Source: Sulfuritalea sp.
Lineage (GTDB): Bacteria; Pseudomonadota; Gammaproteobacteria; Burkholderiales; Rhodocyclaceae
Direction: 5' to 3'
DNA length: 64,000 nucleotides
Assembly (NCBI RefSeq): GCF_017302275.1
Contig: NZ_JAFLDR010000016.1
Span: 22,156-86,155 of the forward strand
Shown here: positions 6,780-40,834 of the stretch, in pieces
Position numbering within the stretch: position 1 is the stretch's first letter
How the letters are laid out: every line of letters begins with the position of its first letter
Notes under the pieces: model-generated
The model's input: the letters and a program-made list of their open reading frames with translations, nothing else
Databases searched by the model: none
Told to the model about the DNA's origin: nothing
Position numbers and translations under genes: made by a program

Positions 6780-6805
6780 CGCGACGTCCTTGGCGGGACG
6801 CCACG

Positions 6806-6852
6806 AAAAGTCGGCGCCCCACAGGGACTTCCTTCGGTCGCTGGCGGGGCGG
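6806..6852 (+). repeat. Dispersed motif, long form with 24-nt insert
   Basis: AAAAGTCGGCGC[CCCACAGGGACTTCCTTCGGTCGC]TGGCGGGGCGG, between convergent genes. Confidence 0.85.
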
Positions 6853-6876
6853 CGATCCACCTCCGAGCGATGCCGG

Positions 6877-7704: not shown

Positions 7705-7711
7705 TGCACAC

Positions 7712-7742
7712 GGGGCTTCGACAGGCTCAGCCCGAACGGTGG
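7712..7742 (+). repeat. REP-like element (GGGGCTTCGACAGGCTCAGCCCGAACGGTGG)
   Basis: Near-identical copies at 18554-18584 and, inverted, at 18512-18538. Confidence 0.75.
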
Positions 7743-7759
7743 TTTCACCGGCTCAATTG

Positions 7760-8716: not shown

Positions 8717-9612
8717 GGCGGCGGCCGGCGGCTCCAGTAGGTCGACACCGTGAGGCCGGAAACGATGTGCCAGATGCCCCACCAGGCGGTGACGATGGCC
8801 ATGCCGCCGAGGCCGTCGAAGAAATTGAAAATCAGGATCAGGCCCAGCGCCGAGTTCTGGATGCCGACTTCAATCGACACCGCGCGCCGGTCGCGCTCGG
8901 GCAGGCCGCTGAACTTCGCCGCGAAATAGCCGGTGCTCAGTGCGAGTGCATTGTGGAGGAATACCGCGATCACCACGAATCCGACATAGTCGAGGAAGTA
9001 GCGCCAGTTGGCCGCCAGCGCGCCGATGACGAAGAGCCCGAAGACGCCGATGGAAAAAATCTTCACCGGCTTGTGGGCGCGTTCGACGAACACGGGAAAG
9101 CGATGGCCGGCCCACATACCGACGATCATCGGCAGACCCAGCAGGAGGAACACGGCGAGCAGCATGTCCAGCGGATCGAGGGCAACCACCTTGAGGATCT
9201 TTGCCGTTTCCGGGTTCAGCCCGCCCCACAGCGACAGGTTGAGCGGCGTCATGACGATGGCCACGGCGGTGGACAAGGCCGTCATGGTGATCGACAGCGC
9301 GGTGTTCCCCTTGGCGTAGTGCGTCAGGAAGTTCGAGATGTTGCCGCCCGGACAGGCGGCCACCAGCATCATGCCCAGCGCGATGCTGGCCGAGGGCTTG
9401 ATCACCATGATCAGCAGGAAGGTGAAGGCGGGCAGCAGCAGGAACTGCCCGACTATGCCGATGATCACCGGCTTGGGCATGGTCAGCACGGCCTTGAAGT
9501 CCGCCACCTTGAGGTCGAGCGCGACGCCGAACATCACCAGGCCGATGATGGCGTTGAGCAGCCACAGCGAACCCGGATTGAAATTCAGCCGGACCAGGTC
9601 CATCTCGTTCAT
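8713..9612 (-). CDS. Bile acid:sodium symporter (BASS) family transporter
   Basis: MFGVALDL, ACPGGNISN, EVGIQNSALG motifs. Confidence 0.92.
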   Translation of the reverse strand: MNEMDLVRLNFNPGSLWLLNAIIGLVMFGVALDLKVADFKAVLTMPKPVIIGIVGQFLLLPAFTFLLIMVIKPSASIALGMMLVAACPGGNISNFLTHYAKGNTALSITMTALSTAVAIVMTPLNLSLWGGLNPETAKILKVVALDPLDMLLAVFLLLGLPMIVGMWAGHRFPVFVERAHKPVKIFSIGVFGLFVIGALAANWRYFLDYVGFVVIAVFLHNALALSTGYFAAKFSGLPERDRRAVSIEVGIQNSALGLILIFNFFDGLGGMAIVTAWWGIWHIVSGLTVSTYWSRRPPP

Positions 9613-9637
9613 GGCATCGCCTCCGCCCGCGTCTGGA

Positions 9638-11389
9638 TTAAGCCTTCGGTTCCTCGTGCATCTTCTTGAAATGTATCAAACCCGGCGCCCACATGTGCTT
9701 CACCGGATCGACATCGACGTGGATCACGGCGCAGCCGCCGGTCGCCAGCGCGCGTTGCAGCGCGGGTTTCAAAGCCGCCGGATCGGAGACGCGCTCGCCG
9801 TAGGCGCCCATGCTCTCGCCCAGCTTGTCGAACTTGATTTCGCCGAGGTCGGCCTTGATCGTTTCGTCGGGATCGAGGTGCTTGAAGATCATGGTCTTGA
9901 TCGGCCGCAGCATGAACTGCTGGTTCATCTTGACCATGCCCCACTGCTTGTCGGCAAGAACGATGTAGATCACCTGCGCCTTGTTGCGCACCGCCGTCTC
10001 GACTTCCTGCGAATGGAAGCCCATGGCGCCGTCGCCGATGATGCAGCACACCGGCTTGCCCGGCCGCGCCAGCGCGGCGGCCACGGCCTGCGAGGTGCCG
10101 GCGCCGAGCATGCCGAACTTGAAAGTGGAGACCACCGTGTTGGGCACCGTGACGCGGTGGTAGAACATGGCCCAGATCGTCGCGTTGCCGCCGTCGGCGA
10201 CCAGCACCGAATCCGCGGGGAATACTTCCTGGCAGACAGCGCCGATGTGCGCCGGATGCATCGGCACCGCCATGTCGGAAAGCGCCTTGTCCCAGCCGGC
10301 GCGATCCTCCTGCATGGTCTTCGCGTAGCCGGCGACGCGGGCGCGGCGGGCATCAAGCTTGATCTCGCCCTGGCGCTTCTCCAGTTCGTCGCCCAGGCTT
10401 TCGAGGAAGCGTTTGGCATCGGCCACCACACCGAGGTCGGCGGGCTTGTTCAGCCCGATGATGTCGGCATCGATGTCGACCTGTATGGTCTTCTGCTCGG
10501 ATGGATGGCGCCAGTAGGGCGGCTTGCCCCACCAGTCGGTCTCGCCGATGCGCGAACCGAGGATCAGCACCACGTCGGCGTCGTTGCGCACCTTGTGGTT
10601 GAGCTTGACGTGGGGCATGGTGATGGCCAGCGGCGAATCCTCGCTCAACATGCCACGCGCCGCCCAGCTCGTGGTCACCGGCGCGTGCAGCAGTTCGGCG
10701 ACGCGGCGCAGGGCGTCGTAGGCGTGGCAATGGATGATGCCGCTGCCGGCGTGGATCATCGGAGCGCCCGCCGCGATCAGCCAGTCGGCCGCCTGCTTCA
10801 CCTGTTCAAGAGTCGGCGCTGACGGCACGGCGTTGCGGTACTGGTGCGGCGCCCAGAACGCCACCTCGGCCTTGACCTTGCCGTTCATGATGGTTTCCGG
10901 CACGTCCAGATGCACCACGCCGGGCCGGCCTTCCCAGCTCTTGCGCAAGGCCTTGCGCATCAGTTCCGGCACCCGGTCGAAGGAGGACACGGCCGCGCTC
11001 CACTTGCCGATCTTGCCGATGACCCCGCTCTGGTCGAAGCACTGGTAGCTGCCGCCGCGATCGGGATACATGATGGTCGGCCGGCGCGCGCTGGTGATCG
11101 CCAGCACGCGGTTGCCGTCGGCCTGCTCGACCACCAGGCCGGGCAGCAGGTTGGCGACGCCGGGGCCGTTGCTGGCCATGCAGACGCCGAGCTTGCCGGT
11201 CAGCCGGGCATAGGTGCCGGCCATGTGCGCGGCGCAGGTTTCGTGGCGCGGCGTGACGATCTCGATGCCGAGCCGGTGCAGCGCCGAATAGAAACCGAAA
11301 TAGGTGCCGTCGATGATGCCGAAGACCTTCTCGACGCCTTCCTTCTGCAACATGCGGGCGAGGATTTCGCCGCCACTGATTTCAGCCAT
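9638..11389 (-). CDS. Thiamine pyrophosphate-binding enzyme (acetolactate synthase-like / acyl-CoA lyase-like)
   Basis: RHE catalytic Glu, ASNGPG, GDGAMG TPP motif; RBS GGAGG before ATG 11389. Confidence 0.88.
   Translation of the reverse strand: MAEISGGEILARMLQKEGVEKVFGIIDGTYFGFYSALHRLGIEIVTPRHETCAAHMAGTYARLTGKLGVCMASNGPGVANLLPGLVVEQADGNRVLAITSARRPTIMYPDRGGSYQCFDQSGVIGKIGKWSAAVSSFDRVPELMRKALRKSWEGRPGVVHLDVPETIMNGKVKAEVAFWAPHQYRNAVPSAPTLEQVKQAADWLIAAGAPMIHAGSGIIHCHAYDALRRVAELLHAPVTTSWAARGMLSEDSPLAITMPHVKLNHKVRNDADVVLILGSRIGETDWWGKPPYWRHPSEQKTIQVDIDADIIGLNKPADLGVVADAKRFLESLGDELEKRQGEIKLDARRARVAGYAKTMQEDRAGWDKALSDMAVPMHPAHIGAVCQEVFPADSVLVADGGNATIWAMFYHRVTVPNTVVSTFKFGMLGAGTSQAVAAALARPGKPVCCIIGDGAMGFHSQEVETAVRNKAQVIYIVLADKQWGMVKMNQQFMLRPIKTMIFKHLDPDETIKADLGEIKFDKLGESMGAYGERVSDPAALKPALQRALATGGCAVIHVDVDPVKHMWAPGLIHFKKMHEEPKA
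10808..10830 (+). repeat. Dispersed 23-bp motif, short form inside TPP enzyme CDS
   Basis: AAGAGTCGGCGCTGACGGCACGG; encodes VPSAPTL on the minus strand. Confidence 0.8.
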
Positions 11390-11512
11390 GATTGCCTCCT
11401 TGCAAAGAATTCTTGTCATCGCCCGCGAGCGACGCTTTTGCGCAAGATTAGTCGCTTGCCGCAAAACATCGCTTGTCGCAGAATGCCACCCACTTTGTCA
11501 TTTCACGACAGC

Positions 11513-12586
11513 ATGCGACGAACCGATCCCCAGCCCGAGCCCGACCCGGCCGCCGCGCCCGGCGTCGGCGCCGGCTATGCGCGCCGCCTGTGCGAACTGG
11601 TCGAGCGCTTCGGCCTGCCGCGTCAGGGGCTGCTGCGCCACGCCGGCGCCGATCTCGCCGGTTGGGATCCGGCGCAGGCGCGCATCCCGCTCCCGGCACT
11701 GCTCGCGCTGTTTCGTTCGGCGCTGGTCCTCACCGGCCGGCGCGACCTCGGCCTCGAATTCGGCCGCCACGCCCGGCCGGACACCTTCGAGGTACTCGGC
11801 TACGCGCTGATGACTTGCCGCAACCTCGGCGAGGCCATCAGCCTGGTACCCCGCTATCGCCACGTCGTTTTCGACGCCGGCTACAGCGAAACCCGACTTG
11901 CCCGCGAAGGCGATGCCCTCAAGTTCTCCTGGGTCATCCTGCCCGAGGCCAGCGAAGCCGGCCTGCCCTACAGCGACGTCCTGGCGGAATCCCTGATCGC
12001 CAGCTGGTATGGCCTCGGGCGCTGGATCGCCGGCGCCGATCTGCCCCTGCGCGAAGCACGGTTCCGCCATGCCGCGCCGGAAGACAGCCTGCCCTTCGCC
12101 AATTTTTTTGCCTGCCCCGTGCGCTTTGACGCTGGCGAGAACGCGCTGCTGTTCGCCGCCGAACTGCTGGAGCAACCGCTGGTCCAGGCCGATGCCGAAC
12201 TCAACCTGGCAATGTGCGACGAAGCGCGCCGTTTCATCGAGCGCCGCCACGGCGACACCGGCATCGCCGCCCAGGTCCGCCGGGTGCTGGCACCGCTGAT
12301 GCCGAAGTGCGAGGCGACCCTGGCGCACGTCGCCGGCGCCATGGGCATCACGCCGCGCACCCTGCAACGCCGTCTCGCCAGCGCCGACTGTTCGTTTCAG
12401 GGGCTGCTCGACGACACGCGCCGCGAACTGGCGCAGGTGTATCTGCGCGATGCCGCCTTGTCGGCTCTGGATGTCGCCCTGCTGCTGGGCTATGCCGAGC
12501 AAAGCTCGTTCACCCGCGCCTTCCGCCACTGGTTCGACACCACGCCGTCCGCTTGGCGTGCCCGCCACGCACCACCCTCGACCTGA
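11513..12586 (+). CDS. AraC family transcriptional regulator (arabinose-binding_2 type N-domain)
   Basis: C-terminal double HTH: AMGITPRTLQRRL, LLLGYAEQSSFTRAFRHWFDTTPSAWR; divergent from the TPP operon. Confidence 0.92.
   Translation: MRRTDPQPEPDPAAAPGVGAGYARRLCELVERFGLPRQGLLRHAGADLAGWDPAQARIPLPALLALFRSALVLTGRRDLGLEFGRHARPDTFEVLGYALMTCRNLGEAISLVPRYRHVVFDAGYSETRLAREGDALKFSWVILPEASEAGLPYSDVLAESLIASWYGLGRWIAGADLPLREARFRHAAPEDSLPFANFFACPVRFDAGENALLFAAELLEQPLVQADAELNLAMCDEARRFIERRHGDTGIAAQVRRVLAPLMPKCEATLAHVAGAMGITPRTLQRRLASADCSFQGLLDDTRRELAQVYLRDAALSALDVALLLGYAEQSSFTRAFRHWFDTTPSAWRARHAPPST
12370..12392 (-). repeat. Dispersed 23-bp motif, short form inside AraC CDS
   Basis: AACAGTCGGCGCTGGCGAGACGG (reverse strand); encodes RLASADC. 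Confidence 0.8.
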
Positions 12587-16103: not shown

Positions 16104-16150
16104 CCGTGTCGCCAGCGACCGAAGGAAGCCCCTGCGGGGTGCCGACTCTC
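16104..16150 (-). repeat. Dispersed motif, long form with 24-nt insert
   Basis: GAGAGTCGGCAC[CCCGCAGGGGCTTCCTTCGGTCGC]TGGCGACACGG, abutting the selD stop codon. Confidence 0.85.
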
Positions 16151-18425
16151 AAGCCAGCAAGGAAATCGGCTCCAGCGCCCTGCCCTGCGCCAGGACACGG
16201 CCGATGCGGACGGCCTGCGGATACCCGGCGGCTCGCAGTGCCGCGAGGCAGGCCTCGGCGCGCTCCGCCGGCAGGCTGGCCAGCAGGCCGCCGGCAGTCT
16301 GCGGGTCGAACAGCAGCGGATAGCTGGCGTGGCCCAGGGCCTCTTCCTGGTTCTTCAGCGCGCGGCGCAGGCGCAGGTTGGCTGGCTGCAGCGAACTGAG
16401 GACACCCGCTGCGACGCATTCGGCGGCGCCGGCCAGCAGCGGCAGCGCGGCGAGGTCGAGTTCCGCATCGACTCCCGAAGGCTTGGTCATCTCGACCAAG
16501 TGGCCGAGCAGGCCGAAGCCAGTGAGGTCGGTGCAGGCCGTCGCGCCGTGGGCCAGCAGCACCGGCATCGCGGCGCGGTTCGACACCTGCATCGATTCCA
16601 GTGCGGCATCGATCCACCGGCCGCGCGCTTTCAGCAGCTTGTGCGCGGCGAACAGGGTGCCGGTGCCGATCGGTTTGGTCAGGATCAGCGCATCGCCGGG
16701 GCGCATGCCGCCCTTGGTCAGCACCCCGGCCAGGCGCTCGTCGATCAGGCCGTTGATGGCGAAGCCCAGCGCCAGTTCGCCGCCCTCCCCGGTGTGGCCG
16801 CCGACCAGCGCGCAGCCGGCCTCGTTGAGCACCGAGACCGCGCCCGCCATCATCTGGAACACGATGTCCTCGACCTTGGCTTCCAGCCCCGGGGGCACGG
16901 TGGCGATGGCGGTGGCCGACTGCGCCTCGGCGCCCATGGCGAAGATGTCGCCGAGGGCATGGTTGGCCGCGATGCGGCCGAAAGTCCAGGGGTCGTCGAT
17001 GAAGGCGCGGAAGAAATCGACCGTATGCACCATGGCCTTTCCCACCGGCACCTTCACCACGGCGGCGTCGTCCGGCGCGTGCAGGCCGATCAATACGTCG
17101 TCGCGTTCGATCGGCTGCACGCTGGCCAGGGCACGCGACAGCACGCTGGCGCCGACCTTGGCACCGCAACCGCCGCAGCGCATGGCGACCGCCGAGATGG
17201 CCTGCGACTGCTCCTCGGCCGCCAGCGGCACGTCGTCGCGATCGAACTGGCGCTCGGCTGCCATCGGCGTCAACTCGGTGAACTTGCGCATGAAGCGGCG
17301 GTCGATCCAGTCCTTCCAGCGCCAGATCCAGTCGCCGCGCGCGTAGAGCGCGCCGCGCGAGGCGACGGCGTGGCGGTCGCCGGTGCTGATCAGGGCCAGC
17401 CAGCGCAGTTGCGGTCGATAGCGCGCGAGTTCCTGGCGGGTCAGTGTGCGGCGCAGGTTTTCCGCCAGCGGGCGGCCCATGCGCACGGCGAAGACGCCAG
17501 CCTTTTCCAGCCGCTGACCGCGCATCGAAGCGCAATCGCCGGCGGCGAAGATCTGCGGATCGGTCTCGCTCTGCAGGAAATCATTGACGCGAATGAAACC
17601 CGACTCGTCCAGCGCCAGCCCGGTGTCGGCCAGCCAGCCGGCGCCGCCGGCCTGGGTGACCCAGACAATCTCGTCGGCTTCGAGCGTCTCGCCGGCCTGC
17701 GTTTGCAGGCGCCCGGCATCGACTCGCACCACTTCCGCGGCGCGGTGCGTCACCACGCCCCGTGTCGCCAGCACCGACTCGAAGGCGCGGCGCACCGAGG
17801 TGTTGTGAGTGGGCAGGATGGCCGCCTCGGCGGAAAACAGGTGGAAGCGCAGTTCGTCGGGATTGCGCCCGAGCGCGACGAGTTCGTTGCGCAGCCGGTA
17901 TTGCATCGCCAGCGTAAGCTCGACCCCCGCGGCGCCGGCGCCGACCACGGCGATGGTGGTCGTCCCGGCATGGGCGCGCACGCGCTCGAACAGTGCCAGC
18001 CAGCGTTCGTTGAAGCGGCGGATCGGCTTCACCGGCACCGCATGGTCGGCGGCGCCTGGCACCCGGTCGAGCCTGGGCGTCGAGCCGATGTTGATCGACA
18101 GCGCGTCGTAGGCGACGGGCGGTCGATTGCGGCAGATCACCTTGCGTTCGCGGCGGTCGATGCCTGTCACCTCGTCGCGATAGTAGCGCGCACCGGCGAA
18201 TTCGGCCAGGCGGCGCAGGTCGATGTGGACTTCGTCGAAGCCGTAATGCCCGGCGATGTAGCCCGGCAGCATGCCCGAATATGGCGTATCGGTATCGGTG
18301 CAGATCACCGTCAGGCGCACGCCGGGCAGCGGCTTCATGGCGAACATGTGCAGCACGCCGACATGGCTGTGGCCGCCGCCGATCAGGACGATGTCGCGCA
18401 AAACAGGTGATGCCTTGGCCTGCAT
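16149..18425 (-). CDS. selD: FAD-dependent pyridine nucleotide-disulfide oxidoreductase fused to selenide,water dikinase (Cys form)
   Basis: N-domain LIGGGHSH, YSGMLPG, FAAGDC; C-domain CGGCGAK, DDAAV, TVDFF, GGHT, TDLTGFGLLGHL, DPQTAGGLL. Confidence 0.93.
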   Translation of the reverse strand: MQAKASPVLRDIVLIGGGHSHVGVLHMFAMKPLPGVRLTVICTDTDTPYSGMLPGYIAGHYGFDEVHIDLRRLAEFAGARYYRDEVTGIDRRERKVICRNRPPVAYDALSINIGSTPRLDRVPGAADHAVPVKPIRRFNERWLALFERVRAHAGTTTIAVVGAGAAGVELTLAMQYRLRNELVALGRNPDELRFHLFSAEAAILPTHNTSVRRAFESVLATRGVVTHRAAEVVRVDAGRLQTQAGETLEADEIVWVTQAGGAGWLADTGLALDESGFIRVNDFLQSETDPQIFAAGDCASMRGQRLEKAGVFAVRMGRPLAENLRRTLTRQELARYRPQLRWLALISTGDRHAVASRGALYARGDWIWRWKDWIDRRFMRKFTELTPMAAERQFDRDDVPLAAEEQSQAISAVAMRCGGCGAKVGASVLSRALASVQPIERDDVLIGLHAPDDAAVVKVPVGKAMVHTVDFFRAFIDDPWTFGRIAANHALGDIFAMGAEAQSATAIATVPPGLEAKVEDIVFQMMAGAVSVLNEAGCALVGGHTGEGGELALGFAINGLIDERLAGVLTKGGMRPGDALILTKPIGTGTLFAAHKLLKARGRWIDAALESMQVSNRAAMPVLLAHGATACTDLTGFGLLGHLVEMTKPSGVDAELDLAALPLLAGAAECVAAGVLSSLQPANLRLRRALKNQEEALGHASYPLLFDPQTAGGLLASLPAERAEACLAALRAAGYPQAVRIGRVLAQGRALEPISLLA

Positions 18426-18511
18426 TCAATGCTCTCCGGATGGGCCGCCGATCATACGCGAAGCCGCGCGTGCGGCGGCGGCGAAGCAAACCGTGGAAAC
18501 CCTGATTTGGT

Positions 18512-18584
18512 CCGTTCGCGTTGAGCCTGTCGAAACGCAAGTCTGCCAGATCAGGGGCTTCGACAAGCTCAGCCCGAACGGTGG
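18512..18584. repeat. Inverted pair of REP-like elements forming a long hairpin
   Basis: CCGTTCGCGTTGAGCCTGTCGAA ... TTCGACAAGCTCAGCCCGAACGG; same family as 7712-7742. Confidence 0.8.
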
Positions 18585-18603
18585 ATACTGGATCGGCGCT
18601 TCC

Positions 18604-19437
18604 CTACCTCCGGATGTCGTTGAGGCGCCAGTCGTAGTCGAGGAACTCCAGCTTGTAGTCGCCATTGCGCACCCTTGCCTGCGCCTCGGGTGTGGCCGCG
18701 AGCTGCGCGGCGTGGCGGGCGAAGGTGGTCTTCAGCGAGTCATAGCCCTTGTGGCCCTTCTCGAAATCCTTGCCGTACCAGTCGAAGATCTTCGACACCT
18801 GCAGGCGGCCCGCGGCGGCATCGAAGCGATTGCGCGTGCCGTCGGCGAGGAAGCGTTTCATGCCGTCGTCGAGTTGGGCATCGAGCTTTTCCGGTGTGAA
18901 GGCGTCAGGCCGCAGCATCGGGCAACCGATCGAAGCGCAGACCACGCCGACGTGGATGCGCGGGTCGTCGAAGGCACCAGGCGCGCGGATGATGCCGTGC
19001 TCGATGTCGTCGAGATGTCGCTCCTGCCCCAGCAGGGTGAAGAACTTTTTCTTCCACGGCGACGAGAACACCGAGCCGAGGTCCTTGATCGATTCGATAT
19101 CCGGGTATTTGCTCAGGATCAGCTCGACGGTGAAAGCGTTGTAGGCATTGATCAGGAAGGCCAGGCGCTGGGCCTTGTTCCACTTGCCGTAGTCGGCTTC
19201 GCCGACCGCCGAGAGCGCGGCGAGGTAGCCCTTGAGCGCCGTGTGCTCGGCCTTGATCGCGGCGTAATCGACGGCGCTGGCATTGCCGCTGGCGAAAGTC
19301 TTGACGTGCTTCGCCAGCAGCGCGTTCCAGGCCGCGTGCGAGTGGTCGAAGCCTTGCGCGCGCGCCAGCGAGGCGCCGGCGAGAAGCATCACGGACAGCG
19401 CGATGGTAAACAGGTTTCGTGCGAGTTTCATGCTCAT
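18604..19437 (-). CDS. DUF547 domain exported protein
   Basis: Signal peptide; FDHSHAAW, AFLINAYNAFT, DPRIHVGVVCASIGCP. Confidence 0.9.
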   Translation of the reverse strand: MSMKLARNLFTIALSVMLLAGASLARAQGFDHSHAAWNALLAKHVKTFASGNASAVDYAAIKAEHTALKGYLAALSAVGEADYGKWNKAQRLAFLINAYNAFTVELILSKYPDIESIKDLGSVFSSPWKKKFFTLLGQERHLDDIEHGIIRAPGAFDDPRIHVGVVCASIGCPMLRPDAFTPEKLDAQLDDGMKRFLADGTRNRFDAAAGRLQVSKIFDWYGKDFEKGHKGYDSLKTTFARHAAQLAATPEAQARVRNGDYKLEFLDYDWRLNDIRR

Positions 19438-21584
19438 TCTCCCCGCCGCCAGGCATGGAAGCGCGCCACCCAGGCGAGCAGCCCTTCCGGCGCGTGCGCC
19501 TTTTTCCAGACGCCGGCGACGTACTTGTTGGCCTCGGCGAGCGTCGGGTAGATGTGGATGGTGCCGAGGATCTTGTTGAGGCCGATGCCGTGCTTCATGG
19601 CCAGCACGTACTCGGCGATGAGGTCACCGGCGTGCTCACCGACGATGGTCACGCCGAGGATGCGGTCCTTGCCCGGCACGGTCAGCACCTTGATGAAGCC
19701 GTGGGCCTCGCTGTCGGCGATGGCGCGGTCGAGGTCGTCGATATCGTAGCGGCTGACTTCGTAGGCGATTCCCTTCTCCTTGGCTTCGGTTTCGTTGAGG
19801 CCGACACGCGCCACCTCGGGCTCGGTGAAGGTGGCCCAGGGGATCACCGAGTAGTCGGTACGGAATTTCTTGAAGGGGTCGAACAGCGCGTTGACGGCGG
19901 CATACCAGGCCTGGTGCGCGGCGGTGTGGGTGAACTGGTAGGGCCCGGCGACGTCGCCGCAGGCGTAGATGTTGGGGTAGGTGGTCTGCAGGAATTCGTT
20001 GGTGTCGACGGTGCGCGTCGCCGCCACGCCGATCTCTTCCAGGCCGTAGCCCTTGAGGTTGGCGACGCGCCCCACCGCGACCAGCACGGCATCGAAGGGG
20101 ATGCGCACTTCCCTGCCTTCATGTTCGGCGATCAGCGTCTTCTCGCCGTTCTCGGTGGTGAAGCGCATCGCCTTGTGGTTGAGCAGCACATCGACGCCTT
20201 CCTCGCGGAAGCGCGCGGCGACGAGCTCGGAGACTTCCGGGTCTTCGCGGATCATCAGCCGCGGCAGCATCTCGACCTGGGTCACCCTGGCTCCGAAGCG
20301 GGCGAAGGATTGCGTCAGCTCGCAGCCGATCGGCCCGCCGCCCAGCACCACCAGGCGTTTGGGCAGTTCGCGCAGGTTCCAGACATTGTCCGAGGTCAGG
20401 TAGCCGACTTCCTCGATGCCGGGAATCGGCGGCACGAAGGGGCGTGCGCCGGCGGCGATGACGATGCTGCGCGTGCTGAGTTTCCCGGTGGCGCCGTTGT
20501 GGCGCACGAACTCGACTTCCCAGGGCGAAACGATTCTCGCGCTGCCTTCGATGACGTCCACGCCGAGCCCGGTGTAGCGTTCGACCGAGTCGTGCGGCTC
20601 GACGGTCTTGACCACGCGCTGCACGCGCTCCATTACCTCGCTGAATTGAAAGTCGGCGCTGGCGGTACGGCGAAATCCGAACTCCTCGGCGCGCGCGACA
20701 TGCGAGAGGAACTTCGCCGAGCGGATCAGCGCCTTCGAGGGCACGCAGCCGGTGTTGAGGCAGTCGCCGCCCAGCTTGTGCTTCTCGATCAGCGTCACCT
20801 TGGCCCTGACCGCCGCGGCGATGTAGGCGGTGACAAGACCGGCGCTGCCGCCGCCGATGACGACGACGTTGCGATCGAACCTGGACGGCTTGGTCCAGCG
20901 CGCATAGACCTTCTTTGCCTTGACGCCGTCGACGATCTTCTTCGCGATCAGCGGGAAGATGCCGAGCAGGGCGAAGGAGCCGATCAACGCAGGCGAGAGG
21001 ATGCCGCGCAGGCTGTCGATGCCGGCCAGTTGCGTGCCGGCGTTCACGTACACGATGGTGCCGGCGAACATGCCGACCTGGCTGACCCAGTAGAAGGTCC
21101 AGGTGCGCATCGGCGTCAGGCCCATCACCAGGTTGATCATGAAGAAGGGGAAGGCCGGCACCAGGCGGAGGGTGAACAGGTAGAAGCCGCCATCCTTCTC
21201 CACGCCGCGATCGATGGCCGCCAGCCGCGGGCCGAAGCGCGCCTTGACCCAGTCGCGCAACAGGAAGCGCGCGGCTAGGAAGGCCAGCGTCGCGCCCAGG
21301 CTGGAGGCGAAGGACACCAGCACCGTGCCCCAGAGCAGGCCGAATACTGCACCGCCGGCGAGCGTCATGATCGCCGCGCCGGGCAGCGACAGCGCAGTGA
21401 CGGCGACATACACGACGAAGAAGATCGCCGCCGTCAGCCAGGGATGGGCCTGGCGATAGGCATCCAGCGCCGCCTGCTGCGCCTTCAGCGCGTCGAGGCT
21501 GAAAAAGCGGCCGAGGTCGAGCGCGAAATACAGCACGATGAACGCGGCAACGGCGGCAAGGAAGGAGAGTTTGCGCAGTGACAT
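19434..21584 (-). CDS. VTT (SNARE_assoc/DedA) domain fused to class I pyridine nucleotide-disulfide oxidoreductase (MerA/LpdA-like)
   Basis: N-terminal ALSLPGA / LRLVPAFPF VTT motifs; GGGSAG, GGDCLNTGCVPSK redox CxxxxC, GGGPIGCE, IHIYPT. Confidence 0.9.
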   Translation of the reverse strand: MSLRKLSFLAAVAAFIVLYFALDLGRFFSLDALKAQQAALDAYRQAHPWLTAAIFFVVYVAVTALSLPGAAIMTLAGGAVFGLLWGTVLVSFASSLGATLAFLAARFLLRDWVKARFGPRLAAIDRGVEKDGGFYLFTLRLVPAFPFFMINLVMGLTPMRTWTFYWVSQVGMFAGTIVYVNAGTQLAGIDSLRGILSPALIGSFALLGIFPLIAKKIVDGVKAKKVYARWTKPSRFDRNVVVIGGGSAGLVTAYIAAAVRAKVTLIEKHKLGGDCLNTGCVPSKALIRSAKFLSHVARAEEFGFRRTASADFQFSEVMERVQRVVKTVEPHDSVERYTGLGVDVIEGSARIVSPWEVEFVRHNGATGKLSTRSIVIAAGARPFVPPIPGIEEVGYLTSDNVWNLRELPKRLVVLGGGPIGCELTQSFARFGARVTQVEMLPRLMIREDPEVSELVAARFREEGVDVLLNHKAMRFTTENGEKTLIAEHEGREVRIPFDAVLVAVGRVANLKGYGLEEIGVAATRTVDTNEFLQTTYPNIYACGDVAGPYQFTHTAAHQAWYAAVNALFDPFKKFRTDYSVIPWATFTEPEVARVGLNETEAKEKGIAYEVSRYDIDDLDRAIADSEAHGFIKVLTVPGKDRILGVTIVGEHAGDLIAEYVLAMKHGIGLNKILGTIHIYPTLAEANKYVAGVWKKAHAPEGLLAWVARFHAWRRGE
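20648..20670 (+). repeat. Dispersed 23-bp motif, short form inside VTT-reductase CDS
   Basis: GAAAGTCGGCGCTGGCGGTACGG; encodes RTASADF on the minus strand. Confidence 0.8.
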
Positions 21585-21597
21585 GGAGTTTCCCGGG

Positions 21598-22167
21598 CTA
21601 AAGCAGCTTCAGCACCTTGGCCAGATAGTCGAAGAACAGACAATACAGCAGGATCGGCAGCGGCAAGCCGAGCAAGGTGCCCGTCAGGTAGGGCCGCAAG
21701 CGGACCCCCGACATCGCCAGCGTGTAGTTGAGCGCCGGCACCGTCTGGAACAGCATGCGCAGCACGACGATGCTGGTAACCGGGCGTTGATCGAGCCGGC
21801 CCAGCAGGTAATTGGCGACCCGGTTGTCCATGCGGCGCAGCGCGTCGCCGCCGACCAAGCGGATGACGAGGAAGGTCATCACGCAGGAAACGCTGGCGGC
21901 GACGTAGGTCGCCAGGCCGCCCGAGCCGCGCCCCAGGGCCAGCACCGCCGCCGCGAGGAACAGCCAGCCGGGTATCTGGATCAGGTTGCCCAGCGAAAAC
22001 AGCAGGACGAAAACCAGCAGGCCACCCAGCGGGTGGTCGCGGATCAACTGCTGCAGGAAGCCCACGGTGAAATGCTCCTTGAGGCCCGTCAGCGCGAAGA
22101 CCGCGTACAGGATCGCCAGGAACAGGAGCACCGCTAGCAGCCTTTGGTATTTTCGCAGCAGCGACAT
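21598..22167 (-). CDS. VTT/TVP38 (DedA superfamily) membrane protein
   Basis: GNLIQIPGW, LRMLFQTVPALNYTLAMSGV, YLTGTLLGLP; hydrophobic. Confidence 0.82.
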   Translation of the reverse strand: MSLLRKYQRLLAVLLFLAILYAVFALTGLKEHFTVGFLQQLIRDHPLGGLLVFVLLFSLGNLIQIPGWLFLAAAVLALGRGSGGLATYVAASVSCVMTFLVIRLVGGDALRRMDNRVANYLLGRLDQRPVTSIVVLRMLFQTVPALNYTLAMSGVRLRPYLTGTLLGLPLPILLYCLFFDYLAKVLKLL

Positions 22168-22210
22168 TCGGACTCCGGTCTCGCGCGCCATGGCAGGCAT
22201 CGCGCCTGGA

Positions 22211-22747
22211 TCACTGCATTCTATGTCCATTGTCGCGGCGCGCTATCAGGTGGTCGATCGATACGGCCCCCGGCCCCCGGGCGACGAGGAACAGCAGCAC
22301 CGCCGCCCAGACGCCATGGGTCGGGTAGGCATCCGGATACACCAGCAGTTGTATCGTCGCCGTCATCACCAGCAGCGCCAGCGCCGAAAAGCGCGTGGCC
22401 AGGCCGATCAGGATCAGCAGCGGAAACAGGTGTTCGGCAAAGGCCGCCATGGGCGCGGCGAGTTCGGGCGGCAGCAGTGGCAGCTTGTATTCCTCGCGGA
22501 ACAGCGCCACCACGGAATCCGAAAGCTGGGGCAGGCCGAGCTGGAACTCGCCATTGACAATGTCGATGGCAAAGCCCTGCACCTTGGTCTGGCCGGATTT
22601 CCAGAAGACCGCGGCAATCGAAAAGCGGCCGAGCAAGGCGATCGCGTCGTCCGGAATGCGTTGCAGCGCGGCGATGCCGGCGCGTAGCAGGCGGACCGGC
22701 AAGGGGCAGGCGCCTCCGGCGGCGCTGGCTGTAGCTAGCGTGTTCAT
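22211..22747 (-). CDS. DoxX family membrane protein (BufD-like)
   Basis: FWKSGQTK, LFREEYKLP, EHLFPLLILIGLATRFSAL, RGPGAVSID; ATGA overlap with the DUF2063 gene. Confidence 0.88.
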   Translation of the reverse strand: MNTLATASAAGGACPLPVRLLRAGIAALQRIPDDAIALLGRFSIAAVFWKSGQTKVQGFAIDIVNGEFQLGLPQLSDSVVALFREEYKLPLLPPELAAPMAAFAEHLFPLLILIGLATRFSALALLVMTATIQLLVYPDAYPTHGVWAAVLLFLVARGPGAVSIDHLIARRDNGHRMQ

Positions 22748-23529
22748 GCGTCGGTCCTCCTCGGGGTGGTGATGCCGGTGATCGCGCCGCAGCGGATCAG
22801 CAGGGCCAGCGTCGTCACCGGGTCGAAATCCGCATCCGCAGCCATCGACTCGGCGGTCGCCGCGGCAAAGGTGGCGGCCTGTTGCAGCAGGCCGATGAAA
22901 AGCGCCGTGCCGTGCCCGACGCGCCGGATTTCGACTTCCAGTCCGATGCGACAAAGCAGCGCCGACTCGGCCCGCGCCGGATCGACGGCAGCCAGCGCCA
23001 GCGCCGGCGACTCCGCCTGGTGCGCGGCCCACAGTGAAACCACGGCATGCTCCGACGGCAGCGCGAACAGCGCCGGATGCAGCGAAAGCAGCGAATCCGG
23101 CAGGCCTTCCGGCTCGGCCAGCACGGCGGCGATGCGTTCCGAGGTGACGGCGTCGACGTCGGCCGCGTGCCAGGACCTTACACGCAGGTATTCGAGGCGC
23201 GCGAGGTCGGCCAGGTAGGGCAGCCCGGCGGCCGGCGGAAAATTCCCGATGAAGCCGGGGAATCCGTCGCCATACAGCGCCAGCACCGGCGAGCGCGGCG
23301 GCTGTGCGCGCACGAACTCGCGCGCCATGGCACGGAAGAAGTCCTCGCCGACCATCGCCTGCGTCACCGGGAAACTGTCCGCCAGCGCATCGACCAGGCC
23401 GACGATGACATTGTTGCGATACACCGCGAAGCGCTTGTCCGGCGCCGACCCGTTCCAGGTCGTCAGGCCAGGCGGGCACGCCGCAGCGGGCGCCAGCAGG
23501 GCTTCAGCAAATACGGCCGGGCCGCTCAC
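22744..23529 (-). CDS. DUF2063 RiPP-recognition partner (BufC/HvfC-like)
   Basis: [36 protein letters not shown]; GTGA overlap with the DUF692 gene. Confidence 0.88.
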
Positions 23530-24419
23530 GCCGCGACCCCGCGCGCGGCAGGAAGCAGCCGCTCCAGGATGCGTTCCGCTTGGCGCGCCTCGGCCAGCAG
23601 CACCGGCAGCGCCGGTATGTCGTTGTCGCGCTCGATCAGGGTCGGCAGCGGCCCGGTCAGGTCCAGGGCATGGCAATACAGCGCCCACACGACTTCGGCC
23701 ACCGGCGCGCCATGGCTGTCGATCAAGAGCGGCGCACCGGCGGCATCGGTGTCCTCGGCAAAGCCGGCGAGGTGGATCTGCGCCACCGCAGCTAGCGGCA
23801 GGGCGCCGATGTAGTCGCGCGCATTGCGGCCATGGTTGGTGCAGGAAATATGGACATTGTTCACATCGAGCAGCAGGCCGCAGCCGCTGCGGCGCACCAC
23901 CTCGCCGATGAAATCCGTTTCGGCCAGCGTCGACGCGGCGAATTCGACATAGGTGGCGGGGTTTTCCAGCAGCATGTGGCGCTTGAGGCGATCCTGGACG
24001 CGGCCGATGTGCGCGCAGACGCGATCCAGCGTGGCGGCGTCGTAGGCCACCGGCAGCAGGTCGCTGTAGAAGTTGCCGCCATGGCTGGACCAGGCCAGGT
24101 GCTCGGAAAAGGATTCGGGCTGGTAGCGATCGAGCAAGGCCGCGAGTCGTTCGAGGTGGGCCTCGTCAAGCGGCCCCTCGCCACCGATCGAAAGCCCGAC
24201 GCCGTGGATCGACAACGGATAGCGCTCGCGGATGCGCGTCAGGTAATGGTGGAAGGGGCCGCCGTCCACCATGTAGTTCTCGGCATGGATTTCAAAGAAG
24301 CCGATGTCCGGCAACGTGTCGAGGATGTCGCGGAAGTGCTCGGGCTTGAGCCCGATCCCCGCCCTTGCGGGCAGGGATCGGTGCTTGCGCGCCGGCAAAC
24401 GGCTCGTTGCGGACCGCAC
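23526..24419 (-). CDS. DUF692 multinuclear non-heme iron oxidative enzyme (MNIO, BufB-like)
   Basis: [52 protein letters not shown]; exact start uncertain. Confidence 0.93.
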
Positions 24420-24442
24420 GGCATGCGTCCCGAGGCAACCGG

Positions 24443-24757
24443 TCAGGCCTTCTTTTCCTTGAACTCCGCCAGTTGCCCGTTGCCGGTCGGCGAGGTCTTG
24501 GACATGGTCTTCTCGCAAGTACCCTTGGGTACCATCGACCAGGCATTGCCCTGATAGTCGGTCTTCGAGGTTCCGGCGCAGGTGGTGCCGGCGCCCGCCT
24601 TGCAGTCGTTCTTGCCCTTCAATGCCACGCCGTAGCACTTTTCGGTCTCCGCCTTCATGGCGCCGCCATGCGAAGCGGCAATGGCGGGCGCGGCGGCGAT
24701 GCCCATGGCGGCACCGAAGGCAAGCGCGAGGGAAGCGGCGGAAAGGGTTTTGTTCAT
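24443..24757 (-). CDS. DUF2282 bufferin-type RiPP precursor (BufA1-like)
   Basis: Signal peptide, then [24 protein letters not shown]...W..VPKGTCEK (4 Cys); RBS AAGGAG. Confidence 0.9.
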
Positions 24758-24830
24758 GATGATCTCCTTGATGGACTGGGGGATGCGGATTGCTCCGTGC
24801 AGGCGCGAAAGCCGCCCTGCTGCTCCGTGA

Positions 24831-24856
24831 GTCGGGCAGGAAATGGAATCCTTACA
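24831..24856 (-). promoter_or_regulatory. Candidate ECF (SigF/ECF16-like) promoter of the bufferin operon
   Basis: Minus strand TGTAAG-N16-CGAC ~75 bp upstream of bufA, resembling GTAACC-N16-CGAA. Confidence 0.35.
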
Positions 24857-24985
24857 GCTTCAAGTATTATTTCGGCGGGGCCGGTCCGGGCGGCGTCGGC
24901 CGGGTCGCCGGCTGCGGGTGGGAGCTGTCCCGCAAGGCCGGAGGAGCTACGGGACGCGTGCGGGGTACATGGGCACGGCGCCCTT

Positions 24986-25008
24986 GAAAGTCGGCGCTGG
25001 CAATACGG
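24986..25008 (+). repeat. Dispersed 23-bp motif, short form
   Basis: GAAAGTCGGCGCTGGCAATACGG, intergenic. Confidence 0.8.
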
Positions 25009-25331
25009 CGATTGGTAGCGGGGATGGCGGCGGGAGGCGGCGATGGCGGGCTAACCGCCCCGGGCGATACTCGTCGATCCTGGTCGCGCTCCCCCTCAGG
25101 CTGGGAAGAGACACTCAGAATTTCGGGGTGACTGACGCCTAGGTGCCCCGAGGATACATCCGCCATCCTGATCTCATTGCCGTAGAGCTGCCGTTCACCC
25201 CTGCACACCCGCATAGGCACCCACTGGAGGAACGGCGGCAACGATGGCGATGCCTGCCAGTGCGGCCCAGGCAGTGATGAAGACACGGCCCGTGGCCCGG
25301 GACCAAATGCAGGGGCTGCACGCTCAGTTAG

Positions 25332-27386
25332 CTAGCGCGGCCGTTGGCCCTCCATCCTCTCGTCCGCGCGGCGAGGCGGCACCACCAGTGACGCGTGGTC
25401 CTTGACGACTGGCCACGCGATATTCATCGCCATGATGTTCTTGACGGCCTTGTGTCCGAACTCGTTGGGGTGGATTGTGCCCGTCGCCTTGTCCGGTCCG
25501 GTGTTTTCGATGGTCGCAGCTTCCCGTTCCCGGCGGAACCAGCGCATCCTGGGCTCATGCAGTCGCTCGGCGACGGGGTGCCCCGGCGCGAAATCATCGG
25601 CGTCGTAGGGCTCCCAGGCACAGGCTCCATGCGGCTCCATTGCATCGCGGATGCCCCCGATATAGGCCCAGCCGTTGGCCGCGGCAGCCTGCTGCACGGC
25701 ATTGTTCAACGGCGTCAGCACGTTCCGCGCGGCCCACCGCAACTCCTCCGCATTCGCCTCCAGGCCGCCCGGCGCGAGGTTGGGCGCAATCGAGTTGAGG
25801 ATCTGCTCGCACTCGGCCAGCCCGCCTCCCAAGGTCATACCCAACAGCGTTCTCGGTGGATGGTCCATCATGCCGAAGTTTGGGTACTCGACAAGATAGA
25901 CGTTGGGCGCCTGGATTTGCCTGGCCACCAGATCGGCCTTGACCAAGGCGTACGAGTTCCCGATGCCGTTGAGACCGCCGAGCAGGTCGCTCCAGTCGGC
26001 TATCCAAGAAAAGAATGAAATCGAGTTTTCGACCTCGGCCCAGTCTCCGGTCTTCACGCCATGCTCGATCTTTTCAAAATTCACAATGTACCGATAGAAC
26101 CCGTCCCGCATGACTAGGCCTGCCGCAGCGTTGGCGAACCCTGCATCGTTGCCGCCCGCCGTGATGATGAGCGCATCGATCCGACGCTTACCCGCGATGT
26201 CCTTCAACTGCTTCAACTGGCCGGGCAAGGGGTCGGCGGCGTCATGGAAGCGAGCGGTCTTGACGCCACCGTAGGGCCCGAGAAGGCCGCTGCTGAGCCT
26301 TGCGCCGGACATCGCGAGGTTGACGTAGGTGACGGAGGACTTGTCGCTGCTCTGCTCAAGCTCCAGCGCAAGTTGCGAACTGGCCGTGAAACTCGACCGA
26401 TGCGAGCGATAGTGCTGCTTATGTGTCGACGAGAACTGACTGAAGTCCGGTAGCCGCGCAGTCATCTTGACAGGTGTGCCAACACCGGCGAGGACGACCG
26501 CCGTGTTGTTTTCGACCACGACCTCTGGGTAGTGTCGACCGTCATCAGCCCAGAGGGTGAACGAGAATCCCCTTCTATGTTCGTCGCGAAGTTGAGTGCG
26601 TGCCCATTCGCGGTTGGCATGTGTATTCTGACGACCTGCGACAAGTTCCAGATTCGAAACGATCCGTCGCTCCGGTGTGCCTTCGCCAGAACCGTACGAA
26701 TCGCCGAGCTGCACAATGAACAGATCCTCAACCGATATGACGCGTCGTACGACATCCGACTGTCCGGTGTAGTTATCCACGGCGGTCAGCGTGATCGAGT
26801 AGTCCCCCTCGGGCAGGCACACGTCCGTTGTGTAGGGCGCCCCGTGAAGGGTAGGGGGCAGCTCCAGCGGCGGAACAAGCGCAGCCCCTTCGATCTTCCA
26901 GCTGGTCTGGCGCATCCGCACGCGCATCCGAGCATATTCGATCGCCGGGTCGGTGACGGGCTCAAAAGCGCCTGAGGCCGGCATGGCAGGGGCGGGCTGC
27001 TCGGGACGCAACGGCACGATCGGTGGATAGCTGGTTGCCGAGGTATCCAGAATGACGCGGAACTGTGGGGCGCCGTTCTCGCAGTCGTCCGCGACGCAGG
27101 AACAGCCCTGCGGGTTCCACGAGGGCAGGTTGTGCGTGTACTCGAAACTGTTCGGCAGATCGATGATCCCGTTGTTGTTCAGATCGAGTCCGTAGCGCGC
27201 GGGACGGCGCCAGGTGAAGGCGGCATCGATCTGACCCGCCGGGGCCCTCTGCCCCCGCTCCTGTGCGTGCTCTCGAGGGATAACGCGTTCCAGTTGCTGC
27301 CCGAGCGCGCCGGAAATGGTCACGGCCGTCAGGAACACAGGAAAGCACAGCGGGCTCAGGATGGCTTGCCGGCAAGCTTTGTTCAT
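25332..27386 (-). CDS. Secreted SGNH/GDSL hydrolase domain protein
   Basis: N-terminal signal peptide; QLGDSYGSGEG (block I), TAGGND (block III), TIHPNEFGH (block V); atypical codon usage. Confidence 0.75.
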   Translation of the reverse strand: MNKACRQAILSPLCFPVFLTAVTISGALGQQLERVIPREHAQERGQRAPAGQIDAAFTWRRPARYGLDLNNNGIIDLPNSFEYTHNLPSWNPQGCSCVADDCENGAPQFRVILDTSATSYPPIVPLRPEQPAPAMPASGAFEPVTDPAIEYARMRVRMRQTSWKIEGAALVPPLELPPTLHGAPYTTDVCLPEGDYSITLTAVDNYTGQSDVVRRVISVEDLFIVQLGDSYGSGEGTPERRIVSNLELVAGRQNTHANREWARTQLRDEHRRGFSFTLWADDGRHYPEVVVENNTAVVLAGVGTPVKMTARLPDFSQFSSTHKQHYRSHRSSFTASSQLALELEQSSDKSSVTYVNLAMSGARLSSGLLGPYGGVKTARFHDAADPLPGQLKQLKDIAGKRRIDALIITAGGNDAGFANAAAGLVMRDGFYRYIVNFEKIEHGVKTGDWAEVENSISFFSWIADWSDLLGGLNGIGNSYALVKADLVARQIQAPNVYLVEYPNFGMMDHPPRTLLGMTLGGGLAECEQILNSIAPNLAPGGLEANAEELRWAARNVLTPLNNAVQQAAAANGWAYIGGIRDAMEPHGACAWEPYDADDFAPGHPVAERLHEPRMRWFRREREAATIENTGPDKATGTIHPNEFGHKAVKNIMAMNIAWPVVKDHASLVVPPRRADERMEGQRPR

Positions 27387-28042
27387 GAGATCAAAGGATA
27401 GGAAATTCAAGCCACATGTGGCAGTACCTTCCACCCTGGTGCATACGTCATTTTCGCCGACGCGTAAACTTTGCGACAGAACCGCACCGTACGCCCACGA
27501 TCAATCCGAAGCAATAGCTGACCTGCTTGAACCCAGAACTACACTATGACAGAAGCGATATTCGTTGTGCGAAGCAGCATGCACGGCCGAACGGGTACTC
27601 TGGCGCATTGAGCGGAAAGCACCGCAATGCAGCATTCCGGCATCAAATGTTTATATGGAGATGGCACCGGAGTTTAATTCAGGAGTGGCCCGTCAAAACG
27701 AACTCCGCGACCTGGAAACCCATATCTGGAGAGCCATTGGAGGCGATGAATGTGGTGTCGATTTGAGCGACGGGCTAACGAATTCAGCACCGCCGATTCG
27801 ATGACCGGTTCCGATTAATTGAGCCAAACGAGTGACCAATGGAGAAACGGCGCCACCAGCTGGTCCTTGCCGACTGTACTCGGCGGGACTTCGAAGCTGA
27901 ATGACCGCTCGCGCTGCATTGCTTACTTCTCGACGCTACGCCCCGCCCGTCGGCGAGGTCCGCTAATGCCGCTTCCGCATAAGCACCCACGACTCCGCTT
28001 CAACCCCACCAACCCGCAAGTCATCGACGCACCGCCGCCCTC

Positions 28043-40132: not shown

Positions 40133-40163
40133 GAACACCTTAGTCGGGCGTATTATTCGCGCA

Positions 40164-40823: not shown

Positions 40824-40834
40824 AGGCGATCACC

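Follow-up and report, generated by a model that had tools for sequence, protein, structure and literature searches.

The eight-gene cluster between positions 24757 and 16149 of a 64-kb stretch of Sulfuritalea DNA (the window; 64,000 nucleotides, GC ~65%) was analyzed in this study. The genes lie on the minus strand in the order bufA, bufB, bufC, doxX, VTT, VTT::reductase, DUF547, and TIGR03169::SelD. This order was confirmed, and every domain named in a preliminary description of the DNA was backed by Pfam and NCBIfam. That description had read the eight genes as one metal/chalcogen stress operon, in which selenophosphate and a MerA/LpdA-like reductase detoxify or build a selenium metabolite or a bufferin variant. 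The best matches of the window proteins were 92-100% identical and came from Sulfuritalea, Sterolibacteriaceae, and Rhodocyclales metagenome-assembled genomes (MAGs) of activated sludge and wastewater. We compared the cluster with 169 fetched loci, which are given L-numbers here, and domain scores were set against the curated cutoff of each Pfam or NCBIfam model where one applies. These comparisons suggest that the locus is probably a composite of three units, namely a bufferin operon, a truncated ArsS-type module, and a SelD fusion, and not one pathway.

Gene content of the cluster

A non-coding stretch of 574 bp (24758-25331) separates the stop codon of a GDSL-like gene at 25332 from the bufA ATG at 24757 and is the presumed promoter region of the operon. 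The bufA gene (24443-24757) encodes a bufferin-1 precursor whose core, after a Sec signal peptide, has four Cys residues (DUF2282/BufA1, PF10048, 85.6 bits). As described before, its translation contains no in-frame UGA. The bufB gene (23526-24419) encodes the MNIO (DUF692) maturase, with GTG at 24419 or TTG at 24398 as the start candidates. It matched PF05114 with 346.7 bits and was assigned to the BufB type, since it exceeded the cutoff of NF050167 MNIO_BufB (377 versus 310) and the HvfB, MbnB, and ChrH models each scored under their own cutoffs. Directly 3' of the MNIO gene lies bufC (22744-23529, GTG start), the gene for the DUF2063 partner/RRE protein (PF09836, 92.6 bits), and doxX, or bufD (22211-22747, ATG start; PF07681, 58 bits), comes next. 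Both junctions overlap by 4 bp, with GTGA at bufB/bufC and ATGA at bufC/doxX. All sequence features published for the bufferin-1/gig operon were found here, and the buf genes had rightly been called a genuine bufferin-type cluster. On these sequence features, bufA-bufB-bufC-doxX is a textbook bufferin-1 cluster. As members of these families, BufB and its partner BufC would turn Cys residues of the Sec-exported BufA into 5-thiooxazoles, and bufABCD would yield periplasmic bufferin-1, a copper chelator or buffer.

The fifth gene encodes a small VTT/DedA-type (TVP38/COG0398-like) membrane protein (21598-22230; PF09335, 56.4 bits) and, according to which start codon is used, overlaps doxX by 20 bp or lies no more than 43 nt from it. 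After a gap of 13 nt follows VTT::reductase (19434-21584), a 716-aa fusion of a VTT domain (PF09335) to a FAD/NAD(P)H class-I disulfide reductase (PF07992, Pyr_redox_2, and PF02852, Pyr_redox_dim). The redox-active motif GGDCLNTGC is kept, and the C-terminal Cys pair is absent. The nearest solved structures of the reductase half were MerA and LpdA. The earlier naming of a MerA/LpdA-like reductase therefore stood for the class-I fold and the nearest structures, but the protein scored under both equivalog cutoffs. Identity with MerA was rejected by the score (TIGR02053, 366 versus 454 bits), by the C-terminus, which reads ...AWVARFHAWRRGE and has no Cys, and by the N-terminus, which is a VTT domain and not an NmerA domain. 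Identity with dihydrolipoyl dehydrogenase (LpdA) was rejected with 388.2 versus 408.8 bits for TIGR01350. These results indicate that VTT::reductase is a class-I disulfide reductase without an assigned substrate, not a mercuric reductase. A previous report on COG0398 DedA proteins gave PF07992 with PF02852 as their commonest fusion partner, without giving a function (PMC10127716).

The DUF547 gene (18604-19437; PF04784, 91.4 bits) overlaps VTT::reductase by ATGA, the third of the three 4-bp stop/start overlaps described earlier. Its protein carries an N-terminal signal peptide and, as predicted, a CxxxxCP motif, which is present as CASIGCP. DEP domains are rare in bacteria. In two related loci (L001 and L008), DUF547 shares one operon with a DEP-domain protein, and DUF3047 lies between them. 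It has been reported that plants fuse glutaredoxin (GRX), DEP, and DUF547 (PMC13621322). Taken together, the plant fusion and the shared bacterial operon support a putative thiol-redox role for DUF547. From the anatomy of the two proteins, the membrane-anchored NAD(P)H disulfide reductase and the exported CxxxxC protein would probably form the thiol-redox arm of their module. The DEP protein has ~345 aa and two DEP domains, and it was observed in the Sulfuritalea-type DUF547/DUF3047 operon of L001 (13772-14809), L008 (11503-12558), L090, L098, and L111.

The last gene (16149-18425) encodes a 758-aa fusion of a TIGR03169 flavoprotein to SelD. The N-terminal oxidoreductase had been placed in the TIGR03169 type, and this was borne out (512 versus 310 bits). 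The nearest solved structures of the N-domain were type-II NADH dehydrogenases (NDH-2). The SelD half has AIRS (PF00586) and AIRS_C (PF02769) domains, scored above the equivalog cutoff of TIGR00476 (289 versus 125), and keeps the equivalents of Cys17 and Lys20 of Escherichia coli SelD, with GGCGAK aligned to AGCGCK of 3u0o. The model TIGR04369, "oxidoreductase/SelD-related fusion, not SelD", gave 479 bits, under its cutoff of 700, and was rejected. From what is known of these families, the protein would work as a selenophosphate synthetase that carries its own NDH-2-like reductase. Previous reports described NADH-oxidoreductase::SelD as the commonest SelD fusion (PMC2432076, PMC4561486), proposed that reduced selenium, the SelD substrate, comes from the fused oxidoreductase (PMC2432076), and found ordinary selenium traits in the genomes that carry it (PMC4561486).

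Since the frames from bufB through DUF547 overlap or nearly abut, bufA to DUF547 are probably carried on one transcript, which would start from a promoter 5' of bufA. Consensus promoters and terminators were scanned between 15.4 and 25.6 kb, and nothing rose above the shuffled background, a result that is uninformative at 65% GC. A sigma-70 consensus was not found in the 574-bp stretch 5' of bufA. Sludge metatranscriptome contigs from four runs covered positions 24590-25316. They also spanned the doxX/VTT junction (22088-22396, no mismatch) and the junction between VTT and the VTT::reductase fusion (21414-21640). No contig spanned 18585-18615, and the DUF547/selD junction remained uncovered because the 3' end of DUF547 had almost no coverage, so that these contigs speak neither for nor against a transcript that includes selD.

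An ArsS-type operon beside the bufferin genes

Loci for comparison were collected with two anchors. VTT::reductase gave 80 GTDB species genomes at 59-85% identity and DUF547 gave 80 metagenome contigs. Both anchors together yielded 160 loci, which were annotated with phmmer, Pfam, and NCBIfam. We found that the two anchor genes belong to an operon whose full order is an ArsS radical SAM gene, an unknown gene of 326 aa (u326), VTT::reductase, DUF547, TIGR04283, TIGR04282/DUF2064, DUF3047, and a solo TIGR03169 NADH dehydrogenase (NDH). The complete order was present in L123, L125, L146, L147, L162, and L165, among others. The module genes scored above their cutoffs, with 442 versus 300 for ArsS (TIGR04167), 263 versus 182 for TIGR04283, 186 versus 134 for TIGR04282, and 337 versus 310 for the solo TIGR03169 (L035). 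VTT::reductase stood immediately 5' of DUF547 in 26 of the 32 evaluable metagenome loci. The gene after DUF547 was TIGR04282, DUF3047, DEP, NDH, or ArsS in 30 of the 36 evaluable loci. Of the 51 VTT::reductase genome loci that extend 5 kb or more to both sides, 33 held at least one further module gene, and this count is a lower bound because single-sequence phmmer overlooks divergent homologues. ArsS was found in 23/80 genome loci and an ArsM-like methyltransferase beside the module in 13/80. Three of the module families (TIGR04167, TIGR04282, and TIGR04283) carry the NCBIfam name "arsenosugar biosynthesis" and were originally named "rSAM/selenodomain-associated".

The window retains the VTT::reductase and DUF547 pair in the conserved order. 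ArsS (L035 query), TIGR04282 (DUF2064), and DUF3047 gave no phmmer match in the 64-kb window; TIGR04283 was not a phmmer query, and none turned up among the window open reading frames (ORFs) scanned with Pfam. By gene content and order, VTT, VTT::reductase, and DUF547 of the window are the front part of a separate, widespread ArsS-type operon, present as a truncated copy. VTT::reductase and DUF547 had been taken for bufferin-associated genes, and this view was not upheld, as both are members of a different conserved operon with ArsS, TIGR04283, TIGR04282, DUF3047, and TIGR03169. The ArsS-type operon would most likely make or process an organo-metalloid (arsenic or selenium) sugar-type compound at the membrane. 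We found no paper that places VTT::reductase, DUF547, DUF3047, or TIGR03169 in an ArsS-type neighborhood, and no functional study of the bacterial module was found in the literature on DUF547, DUF3047, DUF2064, DUF3641, and the TIGR identifiers. VTT::disulfide-reductase fusions, DUF547, and DUF3047, whose functions are unassigned, and the TIGR03169 flavoprotein now share a conserved operon with ArsS and two transferases. The shared operon gives them a concrete context that is testable in cultured strains.

The 326-aa protein had no Pfam or NCBIfam match. Its gene usually stands after ArsS and before VTT::reductase (for example, L125:3727-4644), and in L035, the source of the 326-aa query, it comes after the solo NDH instead (8532-9512). 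In the selenate-respiring Sedimenticola selenatireducens BK-1 (L016), VTT::reductase was 71% identical, and the other module genes were not detected within 10 kb.

We then considered how the bufferin genes stand to this operon. The tight packing of the buf genes with VTT, VTT::reductase, and DUF547, as had been described for the window, was conserved in related loci. The order in L001 is bufA, bufB, bufC, doxX, VTT, VTT::reductase, DUF547, DUF3047, DEP, and TIGR04282. L008 has the same order except that GGDEF-EAL substitutes for the small VTT gene and that TIGR04282 is absent, DUF3047 being present. In L094, bufA to doxX are followed by VTT::reductase, DUF547, TIGR04282, and an ArsM-like gene. 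Three Candidatus Accumulibacter loci (L002-L004:9748-10014) carry an 88-aa HvfC_N/DUF2063 (bufC) fragment immediately 5' of VTT::reductase, and DUF547 is gone from them. This fragment looks like the last trace of a decayed bufferin cluster. In Sulfuritalea-type bacteria, the module has been joined head-to-tail onto the buf operon.

Outside the Sulfuritalea-type clade, buf genes lay within 10 kb of VTT::reductase in 5 of the 51 large, distant genome loci, in three geometries. In Thiobacillus (L060) and Lysobacterales (L072), they stood divergent from ArsS at ~160 bp and had the promoter region in common with it. The Methylophilaceae locus (L071) had them directly downstream of the module, and L067 and L027 had them upstream. 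If a genome holds one or two buf copies, less than 1% would be expected, so that 5/51 is roughly tenfold over an expectation that is itself a rough estimate and not computed. These results suggest that buf and the module are separable but non-random neighbors.

A pure coincidence of neighborhood, with three unrelated units in a rearrangement-prone region and neither shared regulation nor shared function, would fit several of these observations. The flanks vary among relatives: the GDSL gene is found only in the window, GGDEF-EAL takes the place of the small VTT gene in L008, and two deletions lie around selD. Buf genes were not nearby in 46 of the 51 VTT::reductase loci. A survey of MNIO clusters also reported additional conserved genes only at extremely low proportions (PMC12452194). 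Against this stand the overlapping or near-abutting frames from bufB through DUF547, which favor one transcript, and the recurrence of buf beside the module at about ten times the rough expectation. We consider coincidence unlikely as an account of the whole locus.

The DUF547/selD junction and the link to selenium

The 178-bp stretch between DUF547 and selD is the sole large gap in the cluster and, as described before, carries an inverted repeat pair. The pair consists of 25-nt REP-like repeats within 18512-18581 that form a long hairpin, as seen by pattern search and folding. The copies lie at 18512-18536 on the plus strand and 18557-18581 on the minus strand, and with a third copy at 7715-7739 the window holds three, versus zero expected by chance. 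The hairpin was predicted at -81.5 kcal/mol (z = -2.5), and an Rfam scan of the region gave nothing beyond a sub-threshold match on the REP pair. Among the 169 fetched loci, the 25-nt element was found only in the conspecific contig L089. The REP-like element CCGTTCGSGYTGAGCYTGTCGAARC was also observed at very high copy in sludge metagenomes, with a unitig depth of up to ~180 versus ~10 in the flanks.

Misassembly at the REP pair was examined and rejected. Unitigs of four independent DNA metagenome runs chained across the junction with 0 mismatches. The independent MAG contig L089, whose SelD is 100% identical, keeps the order VTT::reductase, DUF547, selD, hemerythrin, histidine kinase. Alternative branch sequences at 18502, 18584, and 18616 in the DNA runs had no match to the fetched loci.

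By blastn, the window was colinear at 83-93% nucleotide identity with contig JACRIY010000003 of a related MAG, which holds both L008 and L005. The colinearity extends from PTA/MaoC through buf, VTT::reductase, DUF547, selD, hemerythrin, the hybrid kinase, and GSDH to the TPP enzyme, with one major break. In JACRIY010000003, which belongs to the closest relative that has a long contig, 14 genes in 12.6 kb separate DUF547 from selD, and 5 of these genes run the other way, whereas the window has a lineage-specific joint of 142 bp (18465-18606) in their place, and the colinearity breaks exactly here. On the cluster strand, the 12.6-kb segment carries DUF3047, DEP, a gene of 135 aa, DUF3179, three ABC genes of the phosphonate type, a gene of 104 aa, and CMD. 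Its opposite strand encodes AraC, AhpC, an EF-hand protein, a response regulator, and a MASE1 kinase. The window likewise lacks a second stretch, 4.3 kb long, from between selD and hemerythrin. DUF3047 or TIGR04282 followed DUF547 in L001 and in all twelve close relatives with downstream sequence (L090-L104), indicating that the gene-rich state is ancestral and the window state derived. A selD gene directly after DUF547 was found in 0 of the 36 other evaluable DUF547 loci and, among ~14 close relatives, only in this species. Read from this comparison, selD is beside DUF547 in this species through a recent deletion of ~12.6 kb. The REP hairpin marks the joint and would act as a 3' stabilizer or a partial terminator before selD. 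Although selD may receive read-through, it is not a conserved operon member.

These results bear on the earlier model of one metal/chalcogen stress operon. In its favor, the eight genes lie on one strand at close spacing, no terminator consensus was found, the same order is present in the second contig of the species (L089), and selD or sen clusters recur by VTT/DUF547 genes in other lineages. However, the DUF547-selD junction is confined to the species, and the closest relative has the 14 intervening genes just described. The strong REP hairpin sets selD apart, and the contexts of the SelD fusion differ widely among relatives (L005, L006, and L007). No SelD partner appears in surveys of thousands of bufferin clusters (PMC12452194), and neither VTT/DedA nor DUF547 is mentioned there. 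The published MNIO chemistry targets Cys, and bufA has no UGA. We consider this model highly improbable. The preliminary description had named a linkage that is not conserved in other genomes among the grounds for refuting its model, and by this measure the selD part of the model fails. The part that stood is the packing from buf to DUF547, which is conserved in relatives, and VTT::reductase and DUF547 belong to the ArsS-type operon. A selenium-containing metabolite or variant of the peptide made on ribosomes and modified after translation (RiPP) had also been proposed, and we found nothing in favor of it. A selenium-containing bufferin is not supported.

The preliminary description had listed no tRNA-Sec, selA, selB, selU, senA, or senB in the window, and none was found among the ORFs scanned. 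SenA and SenB (L007 queries) gave no phmmer match in the 64-kb window. Relatives of the SelD fusion with 83-92% identity stood in differing contexts, next to regulators in L005, ArsS/ArsM in L006, and a sen cluster in L007. Since the fusion of L007 (83% identity) lies directly after EgtD, SenA, and SenB, it serves as SenC there. The L007 locus (6903-12274; Sulfuritalea MAG GCA_016710465.1) was observed to hold a complete selenoneine cluster with EgtD, SenA (473 versus 420), and SenB (454 versus 300), and just 5' of it are genes for a small VTT, an ATP-grasp, and a YHS protein. The wastewater contig L006 from ENA (5728-12274) carries ArsS (TIGR04167, 444 bits), an ArsM-like gene, a PHO4 transporter, and a HAD hydrolase directly 5' of the SelD fusion (86%), and a transposase after it.

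The last gene of the ArsS-type module is usually a solo member of TIGR03169, the family that SelD fusion defines. In a neighbor-joining tree of 38 TIGR03169 domains, built without support values, the SelD-fused clade included the solo module NDHs of Polaromonas (L042) and Accumulibacter (L011). Several further loci have selD or sen genes beside the module. In L009, selD lies two unrelated genes 5' of VTT::reductase, and in L023, a solo NDH is followed by SelD and SenB on the opposite strand. The Limnohabitans locus L027 has VTT::reductase and DUF3047, then convergent NDH::SelD and SenB. L095, L096, L102, and L104 carry ArsM-like, NDH::SelD, an AAA_14/DUF4143 filler, DUF547, DUF3047, and TIGR04282. 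In L167, SelD, SenB, SenA, and EgtD are beside VTT, a YHS (seleno)protein, and DUF547. A selD gene within 10 kb was found in 3 of the 80 genome loci, versus ~0.2 per 80 by a rough chance estimate. Since the SelD-fused N-domain is of the family of the last module gene, and selD or sen genes repeatedly adjoin the module, a family-level link to selenophosphate synthesis is plausible.

These observations raise another explanation, in which the ArsS-type module of Proteobacteria is a selenium (or dual arsenic/selenium) pathway for a selenosugar, a selenolipid, or reduced-selenium traffic, and the SelD fusion replaces the solo NDH, which would make its position functional. The defining fusion of TIGR03169, the solo NDHs within the SelD-fused clade, and the recurrent selD and sen neighbors are in line with it. 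So are the small VTT and YHS (seleno)proteins that accompany the sen clusters of L007 and L167, the ArsS and ArsM genes 5' of the SelD fusion in L006, and the link of DedA-family proteins to selenite resistance (as cited in PMC10127716). If this explanation is true, the terminal NDH would be the enzyme fused to SelD, bufferin and sen clusters would be the recurrent genomic partners of the module, and the window would be a reduced form with the SelD fusion in the NDH position. On the other hand, ArsM-like methyltransferases accompany the module in the 13 genome loci given above, and ArsS chemistry is established for arsenic. No selD gene lay within 10 kb in 77 of the 80 genome loci, selD in both L009 and L095 is parted from the module by unrelated filler genes, and the tree that groups the NDHs has no support values. 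Selenocysteine (in-frame UGA) forms of module genes were not seen in any of the 169 loci, where split matches were due to TAA or TAG codons or to alignment breaks. We regard a selenium module as distinctly unlikely. The safest statement on this gene is that, judged by its domains and neighbors, the SelD fusion is a normal selenophosphate synthetase, that its N-domain family also works in the ArsS-type module, and that its position in the window is accidental or at most opportunistic. An in-frame TAG in the DUF547 gene of L106 (8349-8351) and a TAA in the ArsM-like gene of L072 (13789-13791) were observed as well, and these are probably pseudogenes or assembly errors.

The composite reading and known systems

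Several points weigh against the composite of bufferin operon, truncated ArsS-type module, and SelD fusion. The "arsenosugar" label derives from a cyanobacterial enzyme and NCBIfam naming, and the proteobacterial function is thus labeled by analogy. Since ArsS, TIGR04282, TIGR04283, and DUF3047 are not in the window, the truncated module may be non-functional or act differently. No promoter or terminator consensus was found in the region, so that an internal promoter inside doxX or VTT is possible, and the metatranscriptome contigs that cross these junctions are short, unstranded, and of mixed strains, and may include DNA. Finally, because the module has selD or sen clusters as neighbors in several independent arrangements, the selD adjacency might be selected and not accidental.

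What is new in the composite reading is the recognition of a second operon and its recurrent partners; it brings no new RiPP chemistry. Bufferin and selenoneine clusters recur near the module, a hint that all of them may belong to one regulon for metal/metalloid stress. The result also checks a tempting over-reading, as the selenium bufferin is unsupported and the selD adjacency stems from a recent deletion.

Other features of the window were also observed. The minus-strand gene at 25332-27434, flanked by PTA/MaoC and bufA, encodes a 700-aa protein with only weak GDSL-lipase matches, and L008 has a small PEP-CTERM protein at this place. Positions 53114-56509 of the minus strand encode a 692-aa aldehyde:ferredoxin oxidoreductase of the tungsten type (AFOR_N/AFOR_C) and, after it, a 417-aa Pyr_redox_2 flavoprotein. 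Beyond a tRNA-Arg(CCT) at 40057-40132, the GC drops to 0.59-0.63, and an 817-aa ORF without a Pfam match occupies 40091-42544 on the minus strand. The region 40057-48000 may be an integrated island.

The cluster was compared with the systems that it resembles. The bufferin core has been described as bufA, MNIO, DUF2063, and DoxX (PMC11626156, PMC12452194). The bufferin 1 biosynthetic gene cluster (buf1ABCD, or gig operon) of Caulobacter vibrioides and Cupriavidus metallidurans has the same four genes in the same order and a precursor with a Sec signal and four Cys residues. In contrast to it, the window cluster has no adjacent ECF sigma/NrsF regulator, and its operon runs on unbroken from the described core into three non-core genes.

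Compared with the ArsS-type neighborhood, VTT::reductase and DUF547 of the window are orthologous, with 59-94% identity, to the genes that many Beta- and Gammaproteobacteria have between ArsS and TIGR04283/TIGR04282. ArsS, both transferases, DUF3047, and the 326-aa gene are missing, and bufABCD and the small VTT gene stand where ArsS and the 326-aa gene would be. The terminal TIGR03169 family occurs in the window as the N-domain of the SelD fusion.

VTT::reductase shares with MerA and dihydrolipoamide dehydrogenase the class-I flavoprotein disulfide reductase fold, the CxxxxC motif, and an HxxxxE-type C-terminal motif. It differs in its N-terminal VTT membrane domain and in lacking the C-terminal Cys pair and NmerA. 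As in the plant class IV glutaredoxins (GRX-DEP-DUF547), DUF547 is joined to a thiol-redox module, and L001 and L008 add the DEP protein. However, the bacterial proteins are separate, their redox partner is no GRX but a flavin disulfide reductase, and the window DUF547 has a signal peptide. In the selenoneine cluster (senA-senB-senC, sometimes with egtD), relatives pair the same SelD fusion with SenA and SenB, whereas the window is without senA and senB. When set beside the NADH-oxidoreductase::SelD proteins (TIGR03169 with TIGR00476), the fusion shows the same two-domain build and is an ordinary protein; what sets it apart in this species is its place alone, 178 bp after DUF547.

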